From: Candidatus Eiseniibacteriota bacterium
Lineage (GTDB): Bacteria; Eisenbacteria; RBG-16-71-46; DASYSL01
Direction of reading: 5' to 3'
Assembly (NCBI GenBank): GCA_031431875.1
Contig: JANPEF010000029.1
Coordinates: forward strand, 1-20,155
Length of the DNA stretch: 20,155 nucleotides
A program made the position numbers and the translations under genes. Below the pieces are notes generated by a model. The model saw only the letters and a list, made by a program, of their open reading frames with translations. It ran no database searches and was not told the DNA's origin. This document shows, in pieces, positions 3,083 to 19,949 of the stretch; within the stretch, counting starts at the first letter, position 1; each line of letters begins with the position of its first letter.

Positions 3083-3232
3083 TCAGTTCGTCTCTGCCCA
3101 GACCCGGTCGACGAAGGCGTCATCGCGCAGCAGCGTCTTCACGTCCAGGATGACGAAGGCTTCAAGGTCGTCGGCCCGCACGTACTCCTCATCGCACCGC
3201 TTCACCCGCTCGCGCGTCAGGCAGGCGTATCT
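3083..3232 (-). pseudogene. Fragment of a large serine recombinase (zinc-ribbon to coiled-coil junction)
   Basis: My translation, not in the ORF track: RYACLTRERVKRCDEEYVRADDLEAFVILDVKTLLRDDAFVDRVWAETN*. It matches the Y-x-C-x8-C-x4-(I/V)xAxxLExxV..L.D pattern of LSR zinc-ribbon regions. There is no start codon, and it begins just after the stop of the 3269-4264 gene. Confidence 0.7.
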
Positions 3233-6672: not shown

Positions 6673-6735
6673 GCTCATTTTCCCGCGTCGTGACCCGGCG
6701 GAAACGAATCGGTCACACGCCGGGCGTAGGGTCTT

Positions 6736-6802
6736 GATCACGGAACGCGGCGGCGATTTCCCGACACCCATTCGACTCCGCACGCCGCTTCGTTCCGTGA
6801 TC
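6736..6802. other. Long inverted repeat (12 bp + 6 bp stems, 27-nt loop)
   Basis: GATCACGGAACG (6736-6747) pairs with CGTTCCGTGATC (6791-6802). GCGGCG (6750-6755) pairs with CGCCGC (6783-6788). Confidence 0.7.
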
Positions 6803-6813
6803 GCGGATGGCAA

Positions 6814-6854
6814 CGGGCCCCCGGGACATTGACCCGGGGGCCCGCATTCTTGTT
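6814..6854 (+). terminator. Probable intrinsic terminator downstream of the MBL hydrolase gene
   Basis: Perfect 12-bp GC stem CGGGCCCCCGGG / CCCGGGGGCCCG (6814-6825 / 6833-6844) with a 7-nt loop, followed by CATTCTTGTT. Confidence 0.6.
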
Positions 6855-6870: not shown

Positions 6871-6914
6871 GGTTCGAGTCCCATCCGGGGAGCCATCTGT
6901 GGCTGTGTACGAAC
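6871..6914 (+). repeat. att-like site 1: tRNA-Asn-type 3'-end fragment joined to an attP-type right arm (attL-like hybrid)
   Basis: GG-TTCGAGT-CCCAT-CCGGGGA-G-CCA (6871-6895) has tRNA T-loop/acceptor spacing with the Asn-type GGAGCCA end. The right arm TGTGGCTGTGTACGAAC (6898-6914) is identical to 16326-16342. Confidence 0.75.
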
Positions 6915-7070
6915 AGGGTCGGCGCGAGCCGGCCCGTTCGTGTTTCAGGGGCAGACGCTCCACCCGTGGTCCGTGGGGGCCAGGATGAAGCAGGAACTGG
7001 CCCCGGGCAGGCGACCCCGGGCTGCCCGGGGTCGATGGCGCAGGAGCGGACAGCCCGGCTGCCGTTAGGG

Positions 7071-7082: not shown

Positions 7083-9755
7083 ATGGCACTCACCCCCGGC
7101 ACCAGGCTTGGACCCTACGAGATCGTTGCGCCCATCGGCGCAGGCGGGATGGGGGAGGTGTATCGCTGCCGCGATACCCGCCTCGGTCGCGACGTGGCCG
7201 TCAAGATCCTCCCTCCCGGCTTTGCCGCCAATGAGGCATCGCGCGCCCGCTTCGAGCGGGAAGCGCGAACCGTGTCGTCGCTGAATCATCCGAACATCTG
7301 CACGCTCTTCGATGTCGGCCGTGAGGACGACACGGACTACCTGGTGATGGAGTTGATCGAGGGCGAGTCGCTGGCCGAGCGTCTCCTGAAGGGCCCGCTG
7401 CCGTTGGAGCAGGTCGTGCGCTACGGGGCGCAGATCGCCGACGCACTGGGCCGCGCGCATCGACAGGGGATCATCCATCGGGACCTCAAGCCCGGCAACG
7501 TGATGATCACGAAGTCGGGGGCCAAGCTCCTCGACTTCGGTCTCGCCCGTTCCGGGCAGGACGCATCGCCCTTGCAGGGCATGACGGTGATGGCGACGCA
7601 GGCGATGCCGCTGACCCAGGAAGGAACGATCCTCGGGACCTTCCAGTACATGGCCCCGGAGCAACTCGAGGGGATCGAGGCCGATGCGCGCACGGACATC
7701 TTCGCCTTCGGGGCGCTGCTCTACGAGATGGCGACGGGGAAGTGCGCCTTCGAGGGAGCCACGCGAACCTCGCTGATCGCGGCCATCGTGTCGGGAACCC
7801 CGCGTCCGATGAGCGAGCTGGTGCCGCTGACGCCGCCGGCGCTCGAGCATGTCGTGCGCCGCTGCCTGGCGAAGGACCCGGACGATCGCTGGCAGAGCGC
7901 GGCGGACGTCGGGAACCAGCTGCACTGGATCTCCGAGGCCGGATCGCGCGCCGGCGAGGCGGCGCCGCTGGCGGCTCGGCGACGCTTCCGTCTCCGTGCC
8001 GCGTGGGGCCTGCACGCCGTGACCGCGGCGGCGGCCGTGGCCGCCACGCTCGGAATCGCCGCGATGCTGCGAGCTCCGGCGCCGGTCTTGAACACGTCGA
8101 TCCTCCCGCCGAAGGACCTGCGCATCGATCTCGGTGTCGGCGCTCCGGCCCTCTCGCCCGACGGCCTGCGCCTTGCCTACGTGGCCGCCAGCCAGGACGG
8201 CAAGTCCGCCCTGTGGGTCCGGACCCTCTCCACCGGCTCCGCGCAGGCGCTGCCAGGGACGGACGGGGCCGCGCACCCCTTCTGGTCGCCGGATAGCCGG
8301 CAGATCGGCTTCTTCGCCTCGGGCAAGCTCAAGAGGATCGAAGCGTCGGGCGGGCCGGCGCAGACGATCTGCGACGTGTCGCAAGGGCGCGGGGGCGCCT
8401 GGGGGGGCGACGGGACGATCCTCTTCACCCCGAACCCATCGGCGTCGCTCCACCGCGTGCCGGTGACGGGAGGGGCGCCGGTCGCGGAAACGGAACTGGA
8501 CTCGACGCGGAACGACACCTCGCACCGGTACGCCGAGTTCCTTCCCGACGGAAAGCACTACCTGTTCCTCGTCCAGTCGTCGATCGAGACCCCGGGAACC
8601 GATCAGGGATTCGCGGTGTTCGCGGGTGTGCTCGGCTCGAAGGAGAGGAAGATGGTGGTCGCAACGAGCGGGCAGGCACGGTTCTCGCCGGAGACGGGGC
8701 AGTTGCTCTTCCTCCGGGGCGGCGCGCTGGTCGCGCAGAAGTTCGATCCCCGGACGGGGTCGCTCTCCGGAGAGGCTGTGCCCATCACCGATGCCGTGCG
8801 GCGGAGCGGGCGCTTCGAGGCGGCCTTCAGCCTGTCCCGGACCGGTCTCCTGGTCTTCCACGCCGGCAGCAGCGGCGAGCCATCCGAACTCGTCCTGCTC
8901 GACCGCACCGGCAGGGATGTCGGGTTGGTCGGCAAGACGGTCGCCGATTACCGTTCGCCGAGACTCTCGCGCGACGGGACGCGCGTGGCGGTGGGGATCA
9001 CCGACCCGGGCACCCAGAAGTCCGACGTGTGGGTGATGGACGTGGCGCGCGGAACCTCCACGCGCCTCACGTTCGATCCCGAGAACGACTTCGGTCCGGT
9101 CTGGTCGCCCGACGACCGGAGGATCTACTTCTCCTCGCTCCGGAGCAAGCGCGGCGACATCTTCGCCAAGTCGAGCTCGGGAACGGGGACGGAAGAGACG
9201 ATCTACGCGGGCCCGAACAACGAGATCCTCACGCAAGTCTCACCGGACGGAGCACTTGCCTGGATCATCGCCGACCAGCCCAGGCAGTCCTGGGACATCC
9301 TCCGCCTCGACCTCCAGTCCGGCAAGGCCACGGACTTCATCTCGACGCCCTTCCTCGAGTGGGGGCCATCCCCCTCACCCGATGGGCGCTGGCTCGCGTA
9401 CGCATCCGTCGAGTCGGGGCGGGGTGAGGTCTACGTCCAGTCGCTCCTCGACGACGGCGGCAAGTGGCAGATTTCCACCGACGGCGGTGGATACATGGCA
9501 TGGACGCGCGGCGGGAGGGAGATCATCTACCAGGGGAACGACCGCAAGCTGATGGCCGTGGACATCCGCCTCGAGCCCACGTTCCAGGCCGGGACACCGA
9601 AAGTCCTCTTCGATCCTCGGATGCAGGTGAGCCCCGGCAAGGAGTGGGACGTCATGGCCGACGGCGAGCGCTTCCTCGTGAACCGCGTGATCGAAGCCCC
9701 GGGCGTGGAGCCGCTCACCCTCGTCCAGAACTGGCCCGCGACGCTCAAGAAGTGA
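7083..9755 (+). CDS. Hanks-type Ser/Thr protein kinase with TM helix and TolB/PD40 beta-propeller domain
   Basis: IGAGGMGEVY, VAVK, HRDLKPGN, DFGLA, GTFQYMAPE. Hydrophobic segment at about aa 316-338. Repeated (W/F/L)SPDG-type PD40 motifs. Ends LVQNWPATLKK. Confidence 0.95.
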   Translation: MALTPGTRLGPYEIVAPIGAGGMGEVYRCRDTRLGRDVAVKILPPGFAANEASRARFEREARTVSSLNHPNICTLFDVGREDDTDYLVMELIEGESLAERLLKGPLPLEQVVRYGAQIADALGRAHRQGIIHRDLKPGNVMITKSGAKLLDFGLARSGQDASPLQGMTVMATQAMPLTQEGTILGTFQYMAPEQLEGIEADARTDIFAFGALLYEMATGKCAFEGATRTSLIAAIVSGTPRPMSELVPLTPPALEHVVRRCLAKDPDDRWQSAADVGNQLHWISEAGSRAGEAAPLAARRRFRLRAAWGLHAVTAAAAVAATLGIAAMLRAPAPVLNTSILPPKDLRIDLGVGAPALSPDGLRLAYVAASQDGKSALWVRTLSTGSAQALPGTDGAAHPFWSPDSRQIGFFASGKLKRIEASGGPAQTICDVSQGRGGAWGGDGTILFTPNPSASLHRVPVTGGAPVAETELDSTRNDTSHRYAEFLPDGKHYLFLVQSSIETPGTDQGFAVFAGVLGSKERKMVVATSGQARFSPETGQLLFLRGGALVAQKFDPRTGSLSGEAVPITDAVRRSGRFEAAFSLSRTGLLVFHAGSSGEPSELVLLDRTGRDVGLVGKTVADYRSPRLSRDGTRVAVGITDPGTQKSDVWVMDVARGTSTRLTFDPENDFGPVWSPDDRRIYFSSLRSKRGDIFAKSSSGTGTEETIYAGPNNEILTQVSPDGALAWIIADQPRQSWDILRLDLQSGKATDFISTPFLEWGPSPSPDGRWLAYASVESGRGEVYVQSLLDDGGKWQISTDGGGYMAWTRGGREIIYQGNDRKLMAVDIRLEPTFQAGTPKVLFDPRMQVSPGKEWDVMADGERFLVNRVIEAPGVEPLTLVQNWPATLKK

Positions 9756-9891
9756 TCGGGCAGCCTTGCGCAGGGGCCTGACGTGAACCGTACCGTGTTT
9801 GCCGGAGGCTCCATTCCCTGAGGGGGTCTGGACGTCGCTTCGACGTGGACTGGGCCCAGGAGCGCAAGGGCTCAAGACTCCCGTGAACCAC

Positions 9892-9999
9892 TCAGGAACG
9901 CAATGCTCCGCGCAGCATTGTTAAGGCATGTAGCTGCAACGCGATCGCCCAATTCGGTCTCAGGCACAGAGTTCGAAATGAGTAAAGGAAGGGGAGCCA
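9892..9999 (-). pseudogene. Remnant resembling the C-terminal tail of a large serine recombinase, overlapping att-like site 2
   Basis: Reads WLPFLYSFRTLCLRPNWAIALQLHALTMLRGALRS*. WLPxxxxxRTLC resembles LSR C-termini that read through their att site (my recollection, not searched). Locally lower GC. Confidence 0.45.
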
Positions 10000-10007
10000 A
10001 ATGTGAC
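9971..10007 (+). repeat. att-like site 2
   Basis: GTTCG-AAATGAGTAAAGGAA(15 nt)-GGGGAGCCA-AATGTGAC. Same spacing as sites 3-5, and CCA-n-ATGTG-n-C matches the start of the site 4 right arm. Confidence 0.6.
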
Positions 10008-10131
10008 CCCCGCGACTCGCGGAACTGCGGGGGTTCGCTATTCGGGTGGTCGGCACGAGCACGGGAGACGCGAAACGGCGTGAGATCGCCGTGTATGCTA
10101 CCGTCGGAGCGCTCTCTCCGGAGGTGCCGCC

Positions 10132-12972
<2,841 letters not shown>

Positions 12973-13131
12973 GGGCGTGAAGGTTGGCTCCTCCCTGCTT
13001 GCGGACCGAAGTCTTTGCACCGGCCGCGATTCAAGGCGCTGCTGGCGAAGTTATGGCAAAGGGGAGGCCCGGTAATCGACCTGTCCGGGGACGCCCCTCT
13101 CGTTCTGGCCCACGAGGATAGCTGGCGTAGT

Positions 13132-13204
13132 TCGTGGAAGACGCGGAATACGGCTCTTTCCGTCGCCCAGGAACCGTTCGTACACTGGGCAACCTGGGGA
13201 GCCA
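13132..13204 (+). repeat. att-like site 3 with about 44 nt of conserved left flank
   Basis: GTTCG(13176-13180)-TACACTGGGCAACCT-GGGGAGCCA. Ungapped alignment to 16251-16323 gives 58/73 identities by my count. GTTCGTACAC is the exact reverse complement of the right-arm GTGTACGAAC. Confidence 0.8.
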
Positions 13205-13327
13205 CTTTCCATGCACTACCCGACGGGTGGGCGTCAGCCGGCCCGTTTGTGTCGGGTGACGTCGTGACTCCGATTCGCGTGCTCTTCGGCAGTGACCCCA
13301 TGCTACCCTTCAGAGCCCTCCAACCCA

Positions 13328-13376
13328 TCATGCTCGCGTCCCTCGGCGCGTCCCTCGGCGCGTCCATCGAGCATGA
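13328..13376. repeat. 12-bp tandem repeat (about 2.6 copies) enclosed by a 9-bp inverted repeat
   Basis: CGCGTCCCTCGG x2 plus CGCGTCC (13335-13365). TCATGCTCG (13328-13336) pairs with CGAGCATGA (13368-13376). Confidence 0.7.
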
Positions 13377-13426
13377 CCGGCCTCACGCCGGCACATGGAT
13401 TCGCACCCATATCGAGGGAGGTCGAC

Positions 13427-16192
13427 GTGTTCATCCCATCGATGAATCCAAGACATCGTACGCCGCTTCGATCCGCGGGACGCTTCCTGGTCGCCCTGGG
13501 GATGACGGTGTGCCTCGCGCCCTGCACGGCATGGGCGCAAGTGCCCGATCCGAAGGTGTGGGTGACCGACGGCGCCGTGGACGCCATCGCACTCGCGGAG
13601 AACACCATCTACCTGGGCGGAACCTTCACCTACGTCGGCCCGAACACCGGGCACTTCGTCGCGATCGGCGCCGAGACGGGGGCCCCGGAACCGGGCTGGC
13701 CGAGGGTCAACGGCATCGTCGAATGCGCCGCGCCGGATGGCGAGGGCGGGTGGTACATCGGGGGATCCTTCACTTTCGTGGGTGGTGTCCCCCGGACCCA
13801 CCTCGCCCACATCCGCGCGGACCGGACGCTCGACGGGTGGAACCCAGGGGCGAACGGATACTTCGTGCACACCCTGGTGGTGAGCGGCTCGACGGTGTAC
13901 GCGGGCGGTGACTTCACGAGCATCGGCGGGCAGAGTCGCAACTACATCGCAGCCCTGGATGCCACCAGCGGACTCGCCACGCCGTGGAACCCCGGGGCGG
14001 ACGCCGACGTGCGCACCCTCGTGGTGAGCGGCCCGACGGTGTACGCGGGCGGAGAATTTTCCAGCATCGGCGGGCAGAGCCGCAGCCACATCGCGGCGCT
14101 CGATGCCACGACCGGGCTCGCCACCCCATGGAACCCCGCGGCGGACTACTACGTGCGGGACCTGGCGGTTAGCGGCTCGACGGTGTACACGGCCGGCAAC
14201 TTCACCAGCATCGGCGGGCAGAGCCGCGATCGTATCGCGGCGCTCGATGTCGCCAGCGGACTGGCGACTGCGTGGAATCCTGGCGCGGATGGCCTCGTGC
14301 TCACTCTCGCGGTGAGCGGCCCGACGGTGTACGCCGGCGGCCACTTCACCAGCATCGGCGGGCAGAGCCGCATCCGCATCGCGGCTCTGGATGCCACGAC
14401 AGGTCTCGCCACCGCGTGGAACCCGGGGGCGGGCAATGGCGTGATCGACCTGGCCGTGAGCGGTCCCACGGTCTACGCGGCCGGCAGCTTCACCGACATC
14501 GGTGGACAGAGCCGCAGGTACATCGCGGCATTGGATGCCGCCACGGGAGCCGCCACCGCGTGGAACCCGGGGGCGAACGCCTACGTGAATACGCTGGCGG
14601 TGAGCGGCTCCGCGGTGTTCGCGGGGGGCGACTTCGCCAGCGCCGGAGGACGGAGTCGCTCGAACATCGCGGCGCTCGATGCCACGACCGGGGCGGCCAC
14701 CGACTGGAACCCGGGGGCGGATGGCGTCGTGCTCACGATTTCGGTGAGTGGCTCGACGGTGTACGCGGGAGGTGGATTCTTCACGATCGGGGGGCACGAC
14801 CGCAGGCACATCGCGGCGCTGGATGCCGTCACCGGACTGGCCACCGCGTGGAACCCGGCGGCGAACTCGAGCGTGCTCGCACTCGAGGTGAGCGGCCCGA
14901 CGGTGTACGCCGGCGGCACCTTCACTAGCGTCGGCGGACAGACCCGCCTGCACGTCGCGGCGCTGGATGCCTTCTCCGGGCTCGCCACCGCGTGGAACCC
15001 GGAGGCGAACTCGGACATCGTTGCCCTGGCGGTGAGCGGCCCCAGGGTGTATGCCGGTGGTTCCTTCGCGTGGATCGGTGGGCAAAGCCGCACCGGCATC
15101 GCGGCCCTGGATGCCGTCACCGGGCTCGCCACGGAATGGAACCCGGGGGCCAATTCGACCGTGCGCACCCTGGTCGTGAACGGCTCGTCGGTGTATGCGA
15201 CCGGTTTCTTCACCAGCATCGGCGGGGAAAGCCGCAGCCGCATCGCGGCGCTGAATGCCACCACCGGGCTCGCCACGCCGTGGAACGCAGGGACGATCGG
15301 TCCCGGGGAGAGCGGCCCCGGGGGGCTCGGCCCGTTCGTCTTCGCCGTCGCGGTGAGCGGCTCCACGGTGTACGTGGGCGGAGGATTCTCCAGCATTGGC
15401 GGGCAGAATCGCGGCAATCTCGCGGCGCTCGATGCCATGACCGGCCTTGCCACGGCATGGAATCCGGGGGCGGACGCCGACGTGCTCGCCTTGGCCGTGA
15501 GCGGCTCGACGGTCTATGCGGGCGGGACCTTCTACTGGATCGGCGGGGGGAACAATCAGGGGTTCGCGGCCTTGCGCCCCGATGCGAGCGCGCCCGCGGT
15601 CCGGGTACTCTCGCCCGACGGCAACAGCCCGCTCCTGATCGGGACGCCACGCCATCTCGATTGGGCTGCGAGCGACGATCTCGATGTGCAAAGCGTGGAT
15701 CTCTACCTCTCGCGCAACGGCCCGGGTGGCCCCTGGGATCTGCTCGCCGCCGCTGCCCCGAATACCGGGTCGTACCTCTGGACCGTCGTGGGCCCGGGAG
15801 TGCCCGGCAACGACGCCTACCTGCTCGTGGCGGCTCGGGACTACAGCGGAAACCTCGGGACCGACATCTCCAACAGTGGGTTCATCATCTCGGGCTCCGT
15901 GGGGGATGCCGGGCCGGACCCTGGAGTCTTCGCGTTCGCGCTCTCCACGCCCGCCCCGAGCCCGACGACCCATCGATCACTGCTGGCCTACGCCGTCCCC
16001 TCGCGAACGCGCGTGCGACTCTCCCTGTTCGACGTGAAGGGCCGCGAAGTGGCCGTGCTGGCTGACGGCGTGCTCGACGCCGGGCGCCACACTGCCACAA
16101 TCGAGGCGACGGAGCTGCATTCCGGGATGTACTTCGCGCGCCTGCAGGCCGCGGGAAGGGAGCTTGCGCGGCGCGTGGTGGTGGTGAAGTGA
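13427..16192 (+). CDS. Secreted beta-propeller repeat protein (14 repeats of about 48 aa) with Ig-like and C-terminal FlgD/T9SS-like domains
   Basis: GGAGGT at 13417-13422 before GTG 13427 (ATG 13442 is an alternative). Signal peptide ends CTAWA-Q. Twelve WNPGAxxxVxxLAVSGxTVYAGGxFTSIGGQSRxxIAALDAxTGLATx repeats plus two divergent ones. Ends LFDVKGREVAVL..SGMYFARL. Confidence 0.92.
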   Translation: MFIPSMNPRHRTPLRSAGRFLVALGMTVCLAPCTAWAQVPDPKVWVTDGAVDAIALAENTIYLGGTFTYVGPNTGHFVAIGAETGAPEPGWPRVNGIVECAAPDGEGGWYIGGSFTFVGGVPRTHLAHIRADRTLDGWNPGANGYFVHTLVVSGSTVYAGGDFTSIGGQSRNYIAALDATSGLATPWNPGADADVRTLVVSGPTVYAGGEFSSIGGQSRSHIAALDATTGLATPWNPAADYYVRDLAVSGSTVYTAGNFTSIGGQSRDRIAALDVASGLATAWNPGADGLVLTLAVSGPTVYAGGHFTSIGGQSRIRIAALDATTGLATAWNPGAGNGVIDLAVSGPTVYAAGSFTDIGGQSRRYIAALDAATGAATAWNPGANAYVNTLAVSGSAVFAGGDFASAGGRSRSNIAALDATTGAATDWNPGADGVVLTISVSGSTVYAGGGFFTIGGHDRRHIAALDAVTGLATAWNPAANSSVLALEVSGPTVYAGGTFTSVGGQTRLHVAALDAFSGLATAWNPEANSDIVALAVSGPRVYAGGSFAWIGGQSRTGIAALDAVTGLATEWNPGANSTVRTLVVNGSSVYATGFFTSIGGESRSRIAALNATTGLATPWNAGTIGPGESGPGGLGPFVFAVAVSGSTVYVGGGFSSIGGQNRGNLAALDAMTGLATAWNPGADADVLALAVSGSTVYAGGTFYWIGGGNNQGFAALRPDASAPAVRVLSPDGNSPLLIGTPRHLDWAASDDLDVQSVDLYLSRNGPGGPWDLLAAAAPNTGSYLWTVVGPGVPGNDAYLLVAARDYSGNLGTDISNSGFIISGSVGDAGPDPGVFAFALSTPAPSPTTHRSLLAYAVPSRTRVRLSLFDVKGREVAVLADGVLDAGRHTATIEATELHSGMYFARLQAAGRELARRVVVVK

Positions 16193-16250
16193 TCGGGAGC
16201 GACGCCCGGGCAGAGGCCCCGTTCCGGCCCGGGAGGGCTCCCGGGATTGG

Positions 16251-16345
16251 TCATGGAAGACGCGAAATACGGCCCTCTCCGTGACCCAGGGCCGGTTCGC
16301 ATACTGGGCACCTCGGGGACCCAGATGTGGCTGTGTACGAACCGG
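16251..16345 (+). repeat. att-like site 4: complete attP-like site (16292-16345) plus conserved left flank
   Basis: CCGGTTCG (16292-16299) and CGAACCGG (16338-16345) form a perfect 8-bp inverted repeat, extendable to 11/13. The 54-bp span is centred on GA at 16318-16319 within GGGGACCCA. Confidence 0.8.
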
Positions 16346-16423
16346 ACTCCCCCGGGGTCCGGCTGAGGCTCGGTCAGGCGGCAAGCGCGGGCAACTCAAG
16401 TGGCGTTCGCAATCAGGCTGCGA

Positions 16424-16459: not shown

Positions 16460-16599
16460 TGGCTTGGACTCTCACATTAGGGTAAGCTTATCCGCGCCGT
16501 TCTTGGTGCCTCGCTGACTCGCTTCGAACTTGGACTCCCGCGGTGGTCCAGCCACTCCCGCCGCAGGGGTTTTCCCACCCGTGGCTGAAGCAGGCGCTC

Positions 16600-19092
16600 A
16601 TGGATCGCTTGGAGACCACACCGCCCATCCGGGGTGAGTTCACTCGCCGGGCCGCAGTCTTCGTGTTTCTCATTGCGAGCAGTGCCTCGGTTGCTGCCAC
16701 GCGATCCGCCGCCGATCCGCTCCTTGCCGCACCGTTCCTCTCGTACGACGCGGGGATCAATCCCTACTCCGTTGCGATCGGAGACTTCAACGGGGACGGG
16801 AACCCGGACTTGGCAGCGGCAAACTCTGGCGCCAGCACGGTGTCGGTGTTGCTCGGCTACGGGAACGGGACCTTCGGGGCGACGACGGACTTCGGGACGG
16901 GGAGTGGGCCCCGCTCCGTGACGATCGGAGATCTGAACGCGGACGGAAACCCCGACCTGGCGACGGCAAACTTCGACGCCAACACCGTGTCGGTCTTGCT
17001 CGGCATCGGCAATGGGAGCTTTGAGGAGAAGACGGACTTCGCGGCAGGGGATCATCCCTGCTCCGTGGCGATGGGAGACCTGGATGGGGACGGGATCCCC
17101 GACCTTGCGATGGCGAACGACTCCACCAGCATGGTGTCCGTGTTGATCGGCAGAGGTGACGGGACCTTCAGGACGAAGACGGACTTCGGGGTGGGGAGTG
17201 AGCCCCACGCCGTGGCGATGGGAGACCTGAACGGGGACGGGATCGCCGACCTGGTGACGGCGAACCGCTTCGACAACACGGTGTCGGTCTTGCTCGGCGA
17301 CGGGAACGGGGACTTCAGGTCGAACCGGGACTATGGCGCGGGGTTGCACCCCATCTCTGTGGCGATCGGGGACCTGAATGGGGACGGGATTCCCGACCTG
17401 GCAACGGCGAACTTCTCCTCCTCCCAGGGGGTGTCGGTGTTGCTCGGCGACGGGAACGGCACATTCGGGGCGAACGCGGACTTCGCGACGACTCCATATC
17501 CCTTCTCCGTGGCGATCGGGGATCTGAATGGGGACGGGAAGCCGGACCTGGCGACGGGGAGCGATGGTTCAAACGTCGGGTCGGCGTTGCTCGGCAACGG
17601 CGACGGGACCTTCGGGACGAAGATGGACTTCGCGACGGGAGCTACCCCCGTCTCGGTGGCGCTCGGGGACTTGAACGGGGACGGATCCCTTGACCTGGCG
17701 ACGGCGAACTGGGGCTCCCGCACAGTGTCCGTGTTGCGCGGCAACGGCGACGGGACCTTCGGGGCGAACACGGACGTCGGGGTGGGGGATCATCCCAACT
17801 CCGTGGCGATGGGAGACCTGAACGGAGACGGGAACCCCGACCTGGCGACGTCGAACGAGGACACGTACACGGTCTCTCTGTTGGTCGGAAACGGCGACGG
17901 AACCTTTGGGGCAGGAACGGATTTCAGCACGGGAGGTCTTCCCTTCTCCGTGGCGATCGGGGATCTGAACGGGGACGACAGAGCCGACGTGGCAACGGCG
18001 GACTACTTCGGCACGGTGTCGATCCTTCTTGGCAACGGCGACGGGACCGTCGGTGTGCGAACGGGCTTCGACACGGGGAAGTATCCCACCTCCGTGGCAA
18101 TCGGGGATCTGAACGGGGACGGGATCGCCGATCTGGCCGCGTCGCTCATCGGCGCAGGCACGGTGGTGGTGTTGCTCGGCAACGGTGACGGGACCGTCGG
18201 AGCGTCAACGGACTTCGGGACGGGGATTGCTCCTTTCTCCGTGGCGATCGGGGACCTGAGCGGGGACGGGATCCCCGATCTAGCGACGGCGAACGCTTTC
18301 GACTACACAGTGTCGGTGTTGCTCGGCAGGGGTGACGGGACCTTCCAGACGAATCGGGACTTCGGGACGGGGGACAATCCCGTCGCCGTGGCGATCGGGG
18401 ACTTGAATGGGGATGGGAGCCCCGATCTGGCGACGGCCAACTACGAGGCCAGCACGGTGTCGGTGCTAGCCGGCAACGGTGACGGGACCTTCAGGACCAA
18501 GACGGATTTCGGGACGGGGAGGAATCCTCGCTCCGTGGCGATCGGGGACTTGAACGGGGACGGGCGCCCCGACCTGGCGACGGCGAACCTGTATGCCAAC
18601 ACGGTGTCGGTGTTGCTCGGGAACGGTGACGGGAGCTTTGGGACGAAGACGGACTTCGGGACGGGGGGTGGCCCCCATTCTGTGGCGATCGGGGACCTCA
18701 ACGGGGACGGAAACTCCGACGTGGTGACGGCGAACGCTTTCGGCAACACGGTGTCGGTGTTGCTCAACCTCCGCAGCGCTGTCTCGGTCCCGGAAGACGC
18801 TGACGCGCTCCCACGCCTGGTTGAGTTCGCTCCGCCTCGCCCGAACCCGGGCCGCGAGAACGTGAGCTTCGAGTTCGCACTTCCGCGCGAAGCCCAGGTG
18901 TCGCTCGCGGTCTTCGATGCGGCGGGGCGCATCGTTCGCAAGATCGCCGAGACCTCGTTTGTCGCGGGACGTCACGTGCTGGTGTGGGATCACCGAAATC
19001 GCGATGGGCAGGCGGTTCCGAGCGGCGTGTACTTCGTCCGTTTCCAGGTCCCGGGTGTGGTCCTGACGAGGAAGACAATTCTGATCCGGTAA
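16600..19092 (+). CDS. Secreted FG-GAP/VCBS repeat protein (14 repeats of about 49 aa) with C-terminal FlgD Ig-like domain
   Basis: Fourteen [20 protein letters not shown] repeats. Hydrophobic N-terminal segment [18 protein letters not shown]. Ends [28 protein letters not shown]. The start is uncertain (ATG 16600 preferred). Confidence 0.93.
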
Positions 19093-19096
19093 GATC

Positions 19097-19126
19097 GGTT
19101 CGCACTCTGGGCAACCCGGGGAGCCA
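19097..19126 (+). repeat. att-like site 5
   Basis: GGTTCG-CACTCTGGGCAACCC-GGGGAGCCA starts 5 nt after the FG-GAP stop. It shares CTGGGCAACC-GGGGAGCCA with site 3. No recognisable right arm. Confidence 0.78.
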
Positions 19127-19208: not shown

Positions 19209-19949
19209 ATGCAAAGCAAAGTGACTGAGATCGCGGCAGATACCTATCGGATCTCCACGTTTCATCCTGAATATGGGATTCAGTTCAACCAATTCCTCAT
19301 CAAGGATGAGGAGCCGTTCCTGATGCATACCGGATTCAAGAGCATGTTTCCAGCAACGCTTGATGGATTGAGTTCGATCATCGATCCCGCCAAGCTGCGC
19401 TGGATCGGATTCAGCCACTTTGAATCCGATGAGTGCGGCGCGTTGAACGAGTTGCTTGCAGTTGCTCCGCACTCGCAGGCGGTTTGCGGTGTGGTTGGCG
19501 CGATGGTCATGATCAACGACTTCGCAGACCGCGCACCGCGGCCGCTGGCCGACAATGAAGTCCTGCAGACTGGAAAGCATCGGCTGCAATTCCTCGCCAC
19601 GCCGCATGTGCCGCACTGCTGGGATGCCGGCCTGTTCTTCGACGAGACCGAACAGACCCTGCTTTGCTCGGATCTCTTCTTTCAGCCGGGCGATCCCGAG
19701 CCGCTGACCGAGTCCGACATCGTCGGGCGGGCGAGAGATTCAATCCAGGACAGCCTCACGGGGCCCCTGGCGAAGGACATGCCCTACACCCCGTACACGG
19801 AAAGCACCCTGCATCGGCTTGCCGACTTGAAGCCAAAGAGCCTGGCGATCATGCACGGCTCCTCGTTCCGTGGCGACGGCGGGAGAGCCATCAACGACCT
19901 GGCGGTAGTGATCAAGGCTCTCCTGGGTGAACCCGGGAGCGGGTCCTGA
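19209..19949 (+). CDS. Stand-alone FprA/ODP-like MBL-fold (di-iron) protein
   Basis: AGGAGG at 19197-19202 before ATG 19209. Motifs [37 protein letters not shown]. No flavodoxin domain. Confidence 0.88.

Follow-up and report, generated by a model that had tools for sequence, protein, structure and literature searches.

The stretch of DNA analysed here, called the window below, is 20,155 nucleotides long and makes up the entire contig C29 (JANPEF010000029.1) of a Candidatus Eiseniibacteriota assembly (G000). Five sites lie in it, all on the plus strand and all intergenic, and they bound gene cassettes; positions within a site are counted from its central G as 0. The first site, at 6871-6914, is followed by a Ser/Thr kinase with PD40 repeats (7083..9755). 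Site 2 (9970..10040) consists of a variant P arm with GTTCG at position 19, a central GA, and a short inner arm with a terminator-like hairpin, and leads to a Ser/Thr kinase with TPR repeats (10210..12972). Site 3 (13101..13204) has a P arm with GTTCG at 19, then GA, and a remnant of a recombinase C-terminal tail upstream; its cargo is a DUF5122 beta-propeller protein (13292..16192). Site 4 (16220..16372) is an attP-like P-GA-P' junction with the motif at 19 on either side and remnants of both recombinase gene parts alongside, and is followed by an FG-GAP repeat protein with a FlgD-Ig tail (16543..19092). Site 5 (19097..19126), a P arm with GTTCG at 19 and then GA, heads an ODP-family metallo-beta-lactamase fold protein (19209..19949). 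The five cargo genes are on the plus strand and take their names from Pfam. A serine recombinase is represented only by an internal remnant of 48 codons on the minus strand (3086..3229), from the zinc-ribbon region, and no intact recombinase is found in the window. Neither ARAGORN nor Rfam calls an RNA gene at the first site, and no tRNA is called elsewhere in the window. Also present are a 147-residue Lys/Ala/Pro-rich protein (2415-2858) of histone-H1-like composition, with no Pfam match, and, upstream of the first site, three long inverted repeats (6680-6845), which match no Rfam family and gave only weak matches of 33-40 nt in a 151-genome class sample.

Some of the cassettes recur elsewhere behind other arms. 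The ODP cassette sits behind a P19 arm in the window (centre 19121) and behind a B14 arm in the related genome G139 (P and B denote element and host arms, the numeral the position of the motif), with the protein 97% identical; the FG-GAP protein has a 77% homologue there, in a different order. The TPR kinase cassette has a homologue on contig C79 with a different left neighbour and different arms upstream (9994 on C29), and the right flank of site 2 matches C79 at 90% identity, starting at the core. For both the ODP pair and the second-kinase pair, the shared stretch opens three bases to the left of GA, with the core. In run X10 a contig tracks the window over 7634-9999 and departs right after the site-2 core, with 21 unlike letters beyond it. 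Contigs of 4 runs contained no clean cassette-skipping joint; the sole joint between sites, in X2, goes from 19126 to 10004 and resembles a junction on C67. Cassette heads with the short inner arm and terminator-like hairpin are seen in the window at 9996-10040, on C67 at 32350, 38387 and 40286, and on C79 at 3499. Heads of this kind, having no outer motif, may leave the junction free for the next insertion.

In the first site GTTCG occupies 6872-6876 and the central GA 6890-6891, so that the last G of the motif is 14 from the central G. In the other four (centres 9994, 13199, 16318 and 19121) that distance is 19, and the right-hand CGAAC starts 19 from the central A at two sites, those with centres at 6890 and 16318. 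An earlier note on this DNA had read the first site as an attL-like hybrid from these spacings, all of which are exact on recount. GTTCG-N15-GGGGASCCA matches 4 times in the window, GTTCG-N10-GGGGASCCA once, and GGGGASCCA-N14-CGAAC twice, each against 0 in 100 dinucleotide shuffles, which speaks for non-randomness only, as the three patterns were derived from these very sites.

The left arm of the first site (6871..6889) is B-type, a tRNA-Asn-like 3' fragment running from G52 to N70, with GGTTCGAGT at positions 19-11. The central GA (6890..6891) corresponds to tRNA 71-72, is the symmetry centre of the P-P' sites, and is the predicted crossover. The P' arm (6892..6915) supplies GCCA, carries GTACGAAC at 16-23, and is the leftover of a recombinase gene 3' end in minus-strand reading. 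A GC-rich hairpin (6917..6940) forms the cassette head, and blastn finds it again after a site on C108 and after tRNA-Gln(CTG) on C122. On C122, at 568-623, that tRNA gene is followed by the hairpin and island-like genes; tRNA-Gln(CTG) is possibly a second target, with CA as its centre. From 6872 to 6917 (46 nt) the site is 87% identical to the one on C39 that the end of the recombinase P0001 runs through, and the similarity stops at 6917. Sequence comparison places 6871-6914 as an attL-type hybrid, with a 19-base tRNA-Asn-type 3' fragment, GA, and then a P' arm, and the B-P' geometry first proposed has comparative support.

P0001 is the only PF07508 and the only PF00239 match in the whole genome; C39 stops inside its gene, and its N-terminus is lost at the contig end. 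PF00239, PF07508 and PF13408 all score above cut-off, giving the Resolvase, Recombinase and zinc-ribbon set of LI/A118-type enzymes. The predicted structure (mean pLDDT 72, pTM 0.35) has long helices at 296-380, in line with the coiled coil of such enzymes, and fold matches to the SPbeta, Bxb1, LI and phiC31 integrases, and phmmer aligns it to 4kis with E = 1.5e-07. Close homologues (65-85% identity) start with YTRIST or a preceding IAFY, a possible N-terminal catalytic serine motif. The remnant in the window aligns by tblastn to P0001 residues 260-307 (75% identity, E = 2e-16). The link between window and recombinase rests on P0001, on another contig, as the window has no intact copy of its own. 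There are 17 site centres on seven contigs of the assembly, including one at tRNA-Asn on C67, which has three P-type sites downstream, one of them degenerate. The assembly may mix contigs of two strains, judging from fumC, which is present on both C39 and C79 at 88% identity. Among the genomes of the class sample that were scored, 3 of the same family and 43 others of the same order, all incomplete assemblies, there was no LSR at E <= 1e-40. On C74 (4663-5766) a tyrosine recombinase adjoins small cassette-like genes, with no link to the sites described here; its N-terminus is presumably integron integrase-like.

The recombinase family extends well beyond this genome. A tRNA-Asn-type B14-GA arm lies at the end of the LSR in 45 of 79 metagenome loci; 13 others are cut by a contig end and 21 show no match. 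ARAGORN finds tRNA-Asn at 34 of the 45 matched loci and tmRNA at none. A genome scan added 68 loci and a virus scan 21, from many phyla and from proviruses; the range covers Eisenbacteria, Planctomycetota, Acidobacteriota, Nitrospirota, Deltaproteobacteria, Chloroflexi and provirus records. This comparison of loci bears out tRNA-Asn as the main target, and the tRNA-Asn 3' end would, by sequence, be what the family principally uses. Three close homologues (L049, L052 and L053, 46-47% identity) have ends adjoining sequence that is not tRNA and has no GAGCC core. A stretch resembling a tRNA in the 5' coding region of the LSR (L042, L070, L101, L108, L114) was put down to coding chance; the bare pattern GTTCG-N13-GAGCCA matched in 41 of 41 genomes searched, many times by chance, and a loose regular expression for an upstream motif returned only noise.

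For the position of the motif, the centre of each family site was set by a conserved tyrosine codon and the core, with the pentamer unused. Of 172 loci, 104 rows were retained, the others having no C-terminus or no core, and their left arms are B14 in 75, P19 in 11, of neither class in 11, and too short in 7. The expectation that family LSRs by tRNA-Asn would carry the pentamer at the +5 offset holds for most arms: CGAAC with up to 1 mismatch is at 19 in 37 of 43 dereplicated P' arms and missing in 6. The exact pentamer is at 19 in 23 of the 43 and at no other offset from 5 to 39. Family members are kin, so such counts overstate independence. With the centre at 71-72 the value 14 is fixed in any tRNA, and the informative value is the 19 in the P arms. 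Variants of the motif covary on both arms, as GTTAG/CTAAC in G157 and L050 and GATCG/CGATC in L010. Four of 17 hand-picked loci (L048, L186, L231, L240) keep exact CGAAC at 19 while lying at tRNA-Asp (centre CC), tRNA-Glu (CT and GT) and tRNA-Ala (CC). In five distant LSR loci by tRNA-Glu (28-31% identity, three from one genome) the motif is at 19 in 0 of 5. GA as the crossover dinucleotide, also claimed at first, does not carry over to all relatives, some of which have CC, CT or GT in its place.

In the LI integrase model of Rutherford et al. 2013 (PMC3783163) a 9-bp zinc-ribbon (ZD) motif spans 16-24 in attP but 11-19 in attB, the first base of the crossover being 0, with the RD unshifted between the two. 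In that numbering GGTTCGTAC of the element arms occupies 24-16, and the GGTTCGAGT stretch of the left arm falls on the attB zinc-ribbon window, 19-11 (PMC3783163). A shift scan over 34 attL pairs, setting tRNA positions 11-19 against the P' arm, gives 0.64 at +5 and 0.08-0.42 at the 23 other shifts, so the inward displacement of 5 bp from P to B stands in the LI register. In the same pairs positions 2, 3 and 12 agree unshifted; position 12 never varies among the 21 P arms or among the 43 P' arms, and in B arms it is G in 35 of 39. As in LI/A118, whose account has three domains, a symmetric attP, an outer motif at 24-16 (P) or 19-11 (B) and unshifted inner positions (PMC3783163), P0001 has the three domains, and attP is an imperfect inverted repeat about GA in site 4, C79, C108, G139, G157 and L010. 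The motif sequence itself differs from that of LI, and the register alone fits; a base-level likeness had been entertained and was dropped, as the crossover base is numbered 0 in PMC3783163.

The analogy to A118/LI reaches as far as the register and breaks at the two-sided attB motif. LI attB has the motif in both halves, whereas the natural B' half of this family has no shifted motif: CGAAC at 14 is absent from the right half in tRNA-Asn flanks and in attR of G157, G158 and L217. The attR pattern itself is found in 3 of 10 genomes and in none of 5 provirus records. Further contrasts to LI/A118 are that the B motif here is a tRNA T-loop, that the site is inside the integrase gene, and that P-P' junctions occur in chromosomes, 4 of them in the host assembly. 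Such junctions require reactions that are blocked in the integrases covered by PMC3783163; together with the 11 P19 left arms among the 104 rows, they would imply pairings beyond attP x attB, the one pairing expected of this type of integrase when no directionality factor is present. The system appears to work like an LI-type integrase, yet with a one-sided attB.

A separate junction type, P19-B'14, exists. It has a P19 arm, GA, and then, in inverted orientation, a tRNA-like arm whose CGAAC or CGAAT is at 14 on the right side (C106:81630; L178 on G151:C267; L183:11618 on G151:C210), and would be attR-like to the textbook, with the right arm a recurring mobile sequence and not a host locus. An insertion into a host pseudo-site was considered for C106:81630 and rejected: in 4 relatives the locus is empty and shows no site of this kind, the island reaches beyond both sites, and the junction type recurs in G151.

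The attachment site is placed inside the recombinase gene. The P0001 frame continues through the B14-GA-P'19 site on C39. The LSR frame of G157 extends to the centre, and the opposite end of the element, translated separately, continues in frame for 187 residues. This tail has a ParB-type HTH match just under cut-off in G157 (E = 1.5e-4, 22.3 bits against 22.6) and above it in the G158 copy (26.6). Naturally fused forms are found (L010, L089, P0010, P0079), the HTH is a separate next gene in more distant LSRs, and sites 3-5 of the window retain, by reading, decayed starts of the tail. With the site so placed, integration would clip off the ParB-like tail.

Our preferred reading, to which we give about three chances in four, is that 6871-6914 is the attL-type (B-P') junction left by a widespread LSR family, one that mainly targets the tRNA-Asn 3' end, with the T-loop read by the zinc ribbon, the cut at 71-72, and the junction reused to build the cassette stack. 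The zinc-ribbon domain would read GGTTCGANT, the end of the T-stem and the T-loop, at 19-11 in the host arm, and its copy GGTTCGTAC at 24-16 in both element arms, while inner contacts at positions 2, 3 and 12 would stay unshifted. The cut is most likely made at tRNA positions 71-72, where an LI/A118-type enzyme would be expected to cut with a 2-bp stagger at the centre. The P' arm restores GCCA, so the tRNA would survive; nothing constrains the host DNA 3' of CCA, which obliges the enzyme to work with right arms that lack the motif, and from this it would follow that junctions are reusable and cassettes stack. The window would be a stack of this kind at a displaced tRNA fragment, the recombinase genes having since been lost. 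The choice of the zinc ribbon as the motif-binding domain follows the LI structure by analogy, and both the exact cut and the reuse of junctions are what we infer from the arrangement of the sites.

The exact cut was judged from natural recombinants, which have only the core around GA in common. Shared cores span -1 to +7 between the G157 ends and -3 to +4 in the G000/G139 pairs, and complete elements, from tRNA-P' to P-x, are seen in G157 (37.6 kb) and L217 (about 6 kb). Of the proposed crossover at GA in the acceptor stem, the centre at tRNA 71-72 is supported, and the crossover itself is bracketed to a few bases around GA, within which GA is predicted by symmetry. The same width leaves some room for a cut at least one base off GA, or for the T-loop box being read, within the same LSR family, by the HTH tail, the RD-ZD linker or a host factor, and the extra ParB-like tail encoded across the site gives one such reader. 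We consider this unlikely, as the motif fills the LI windows 24-16 and 19-11 exactly, symmetric about GA, and repositioning of the ZD shows itself as just such a 5-bp shift.

The left half of the first site has the T-loop/acceptor spacing of a tRNA and an Asn-type GGAGCCA end, and to that extent the identification as a tRNA-Asn 3' end is upheld; the host gene is where it fails. Among 49 ARAGORN tRNA calls, the host tRNA-Asn on C67 and tRNA-Gln(CTG) agree with 6871-6895 equally well, each at only 20 of 25 positions. Against the tRNA-Asn ends of other hosts (L007, L091, L232) the 19-base left arm has 2 mismatches; it has 1 mismatch to a non-tRNA fragment in L041, and 1-2 over 19 nt to arms of the family. 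There is no 5' T-stem partner for the left half. The left arm is therefore a displaced or foreign tRNA fragment, and not this host's tRNA end. Similar fragments are on C39, C79, C108 and in G139; those 3' of fumC are in G000 and G139 and absent from 4 other relatives with a fumC match. Displacement by a tyrosine-integrase crossover in the T-loop and decay to a half-site footprint both fit. In G000, C39:2205-2283 has about 80 additional bases between GTTCGA repeats 3' of fumC, which G139 does not have, and the insert is possibly the scar of a T-loop insertion. In L007 (G020:C334), downstream of the LSR, the anticodon loop of a tRNA-Asn is split by about 300 bases, presumably a group I intron by its appearance.

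The first of these routes can be taken further, making the left half the 3' fragment displaced by a tyrosine-integrase island, lying passively next to an LSR arm, with the 5-bp offset a coincidence. Tyrosine integrases with T-loop crossover sites are among those described in PMC4383910, several fragments here begin at one base (GTTCG) in unrelated contexts, the C39 insert lies between GTTCGA repeats, and in L204 a tRNA is followed by 5.4 kb of DNA, a half-tRNA and then the LSR. This could account for where the fragment starts, but not for the pentamer at +5 in P arms at intact tRNAs of four types in many phyla; and the genome's 3 PF00589 matches, on C121 and C74, are neither on the window contig nor on any other contig with these sites. 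We regard it as quite improbable. Both arms lie within the LSR frame in the circular form, and their coding for recombinase residues might be all that preserves the P-arm pentamer. This is more doubtful still, since the pentamer is at 19 from GA in two reading frames one base apart with differing codons (18 of 22 and 19 of 20), and minimal arms such as 6892-6915 are retained to position 24 with the gene gone.

In architecture, the LSR system described here is by sequence closest to the Dehalococcoides ssrA islands and the tandem SCC cassettes, going by the parts of PMC3146451 and PMC11470126 that describe them. In the ssrA islands (McMurdie et al. 2011, PMC3146451) the LSR DsiB is likewise on the reverse strand with its 3' end overlapping attL, and the islands are in tandem, some without an integrase; both features recur here. 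Those islands have a six-gene module with a small recombinase, DsiA, and their authors suggest that dsiB is perhaps fully functional only on the circle (PMC3146451). They differ in their target, which is ssrA; here it is tRNA-Asn with the centre at 71-72, and C50, the contig with the tmRNA, has none of the 17 sites. In SCC/SCCmec an LSR (CcrAB/CcrC) also moves tandem cassettes, including recombinase-less ones, at one locus; as presented in PMC11470126 the target is a protein gene, rlmH, CcrAB is a two-protein system, and a tRNA motif does not figure. Tyrosine-integrase tRNA islands (Islander, PMC4383910) are alike in that the tRNA is restored and 3' fragments are left at island ends, and the Mx8 and SSV integrase genes extend across attP as the gene does here, but the enzyme in our case is a serine recombinase. 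It was once stated that tRNA genes are no target of serine integrases (PMC4383910), which are thought to favour protein genes (PMC13626063); the word "tRNA" is absent from the main text of Durrant et al. (PMC10083194). A full-text literature search, with most subscription journals outside its reach, found no account of the T-loop as an LSR half-site motif.

A wider proposal, which we put forward tentatively and at somewhat less than even odds, is that this is an undescribed LSR family using the universal T-loop as a one-sided attB, for which nearly any tRNA 3' end or spent junction would be a target, giving integron-like stacks. With attP within its own gene, the integrase made from the circle would have the 187-residue ParB-like HTH tail and lose it at integration, an activity switch with no separate directionality factor. 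C-terminal extensions, in the portion of PMC12286644 that deals with them, may block the site of a directionality factor. The tandem P-P' junctions and the split gene make control of directionality directly testable. If true, a T-loop-reading family spread over so many phyla would put the 5-bp half-site rule to a natural test and account for the passage of a single enzyme lineage from one host or tRNA type to another, and its integrases would have a landing site in every genome. Recognition of the T-loop is most likely what lets cassettes stack by tRNA-Asn genes in many uncultured bacteria.
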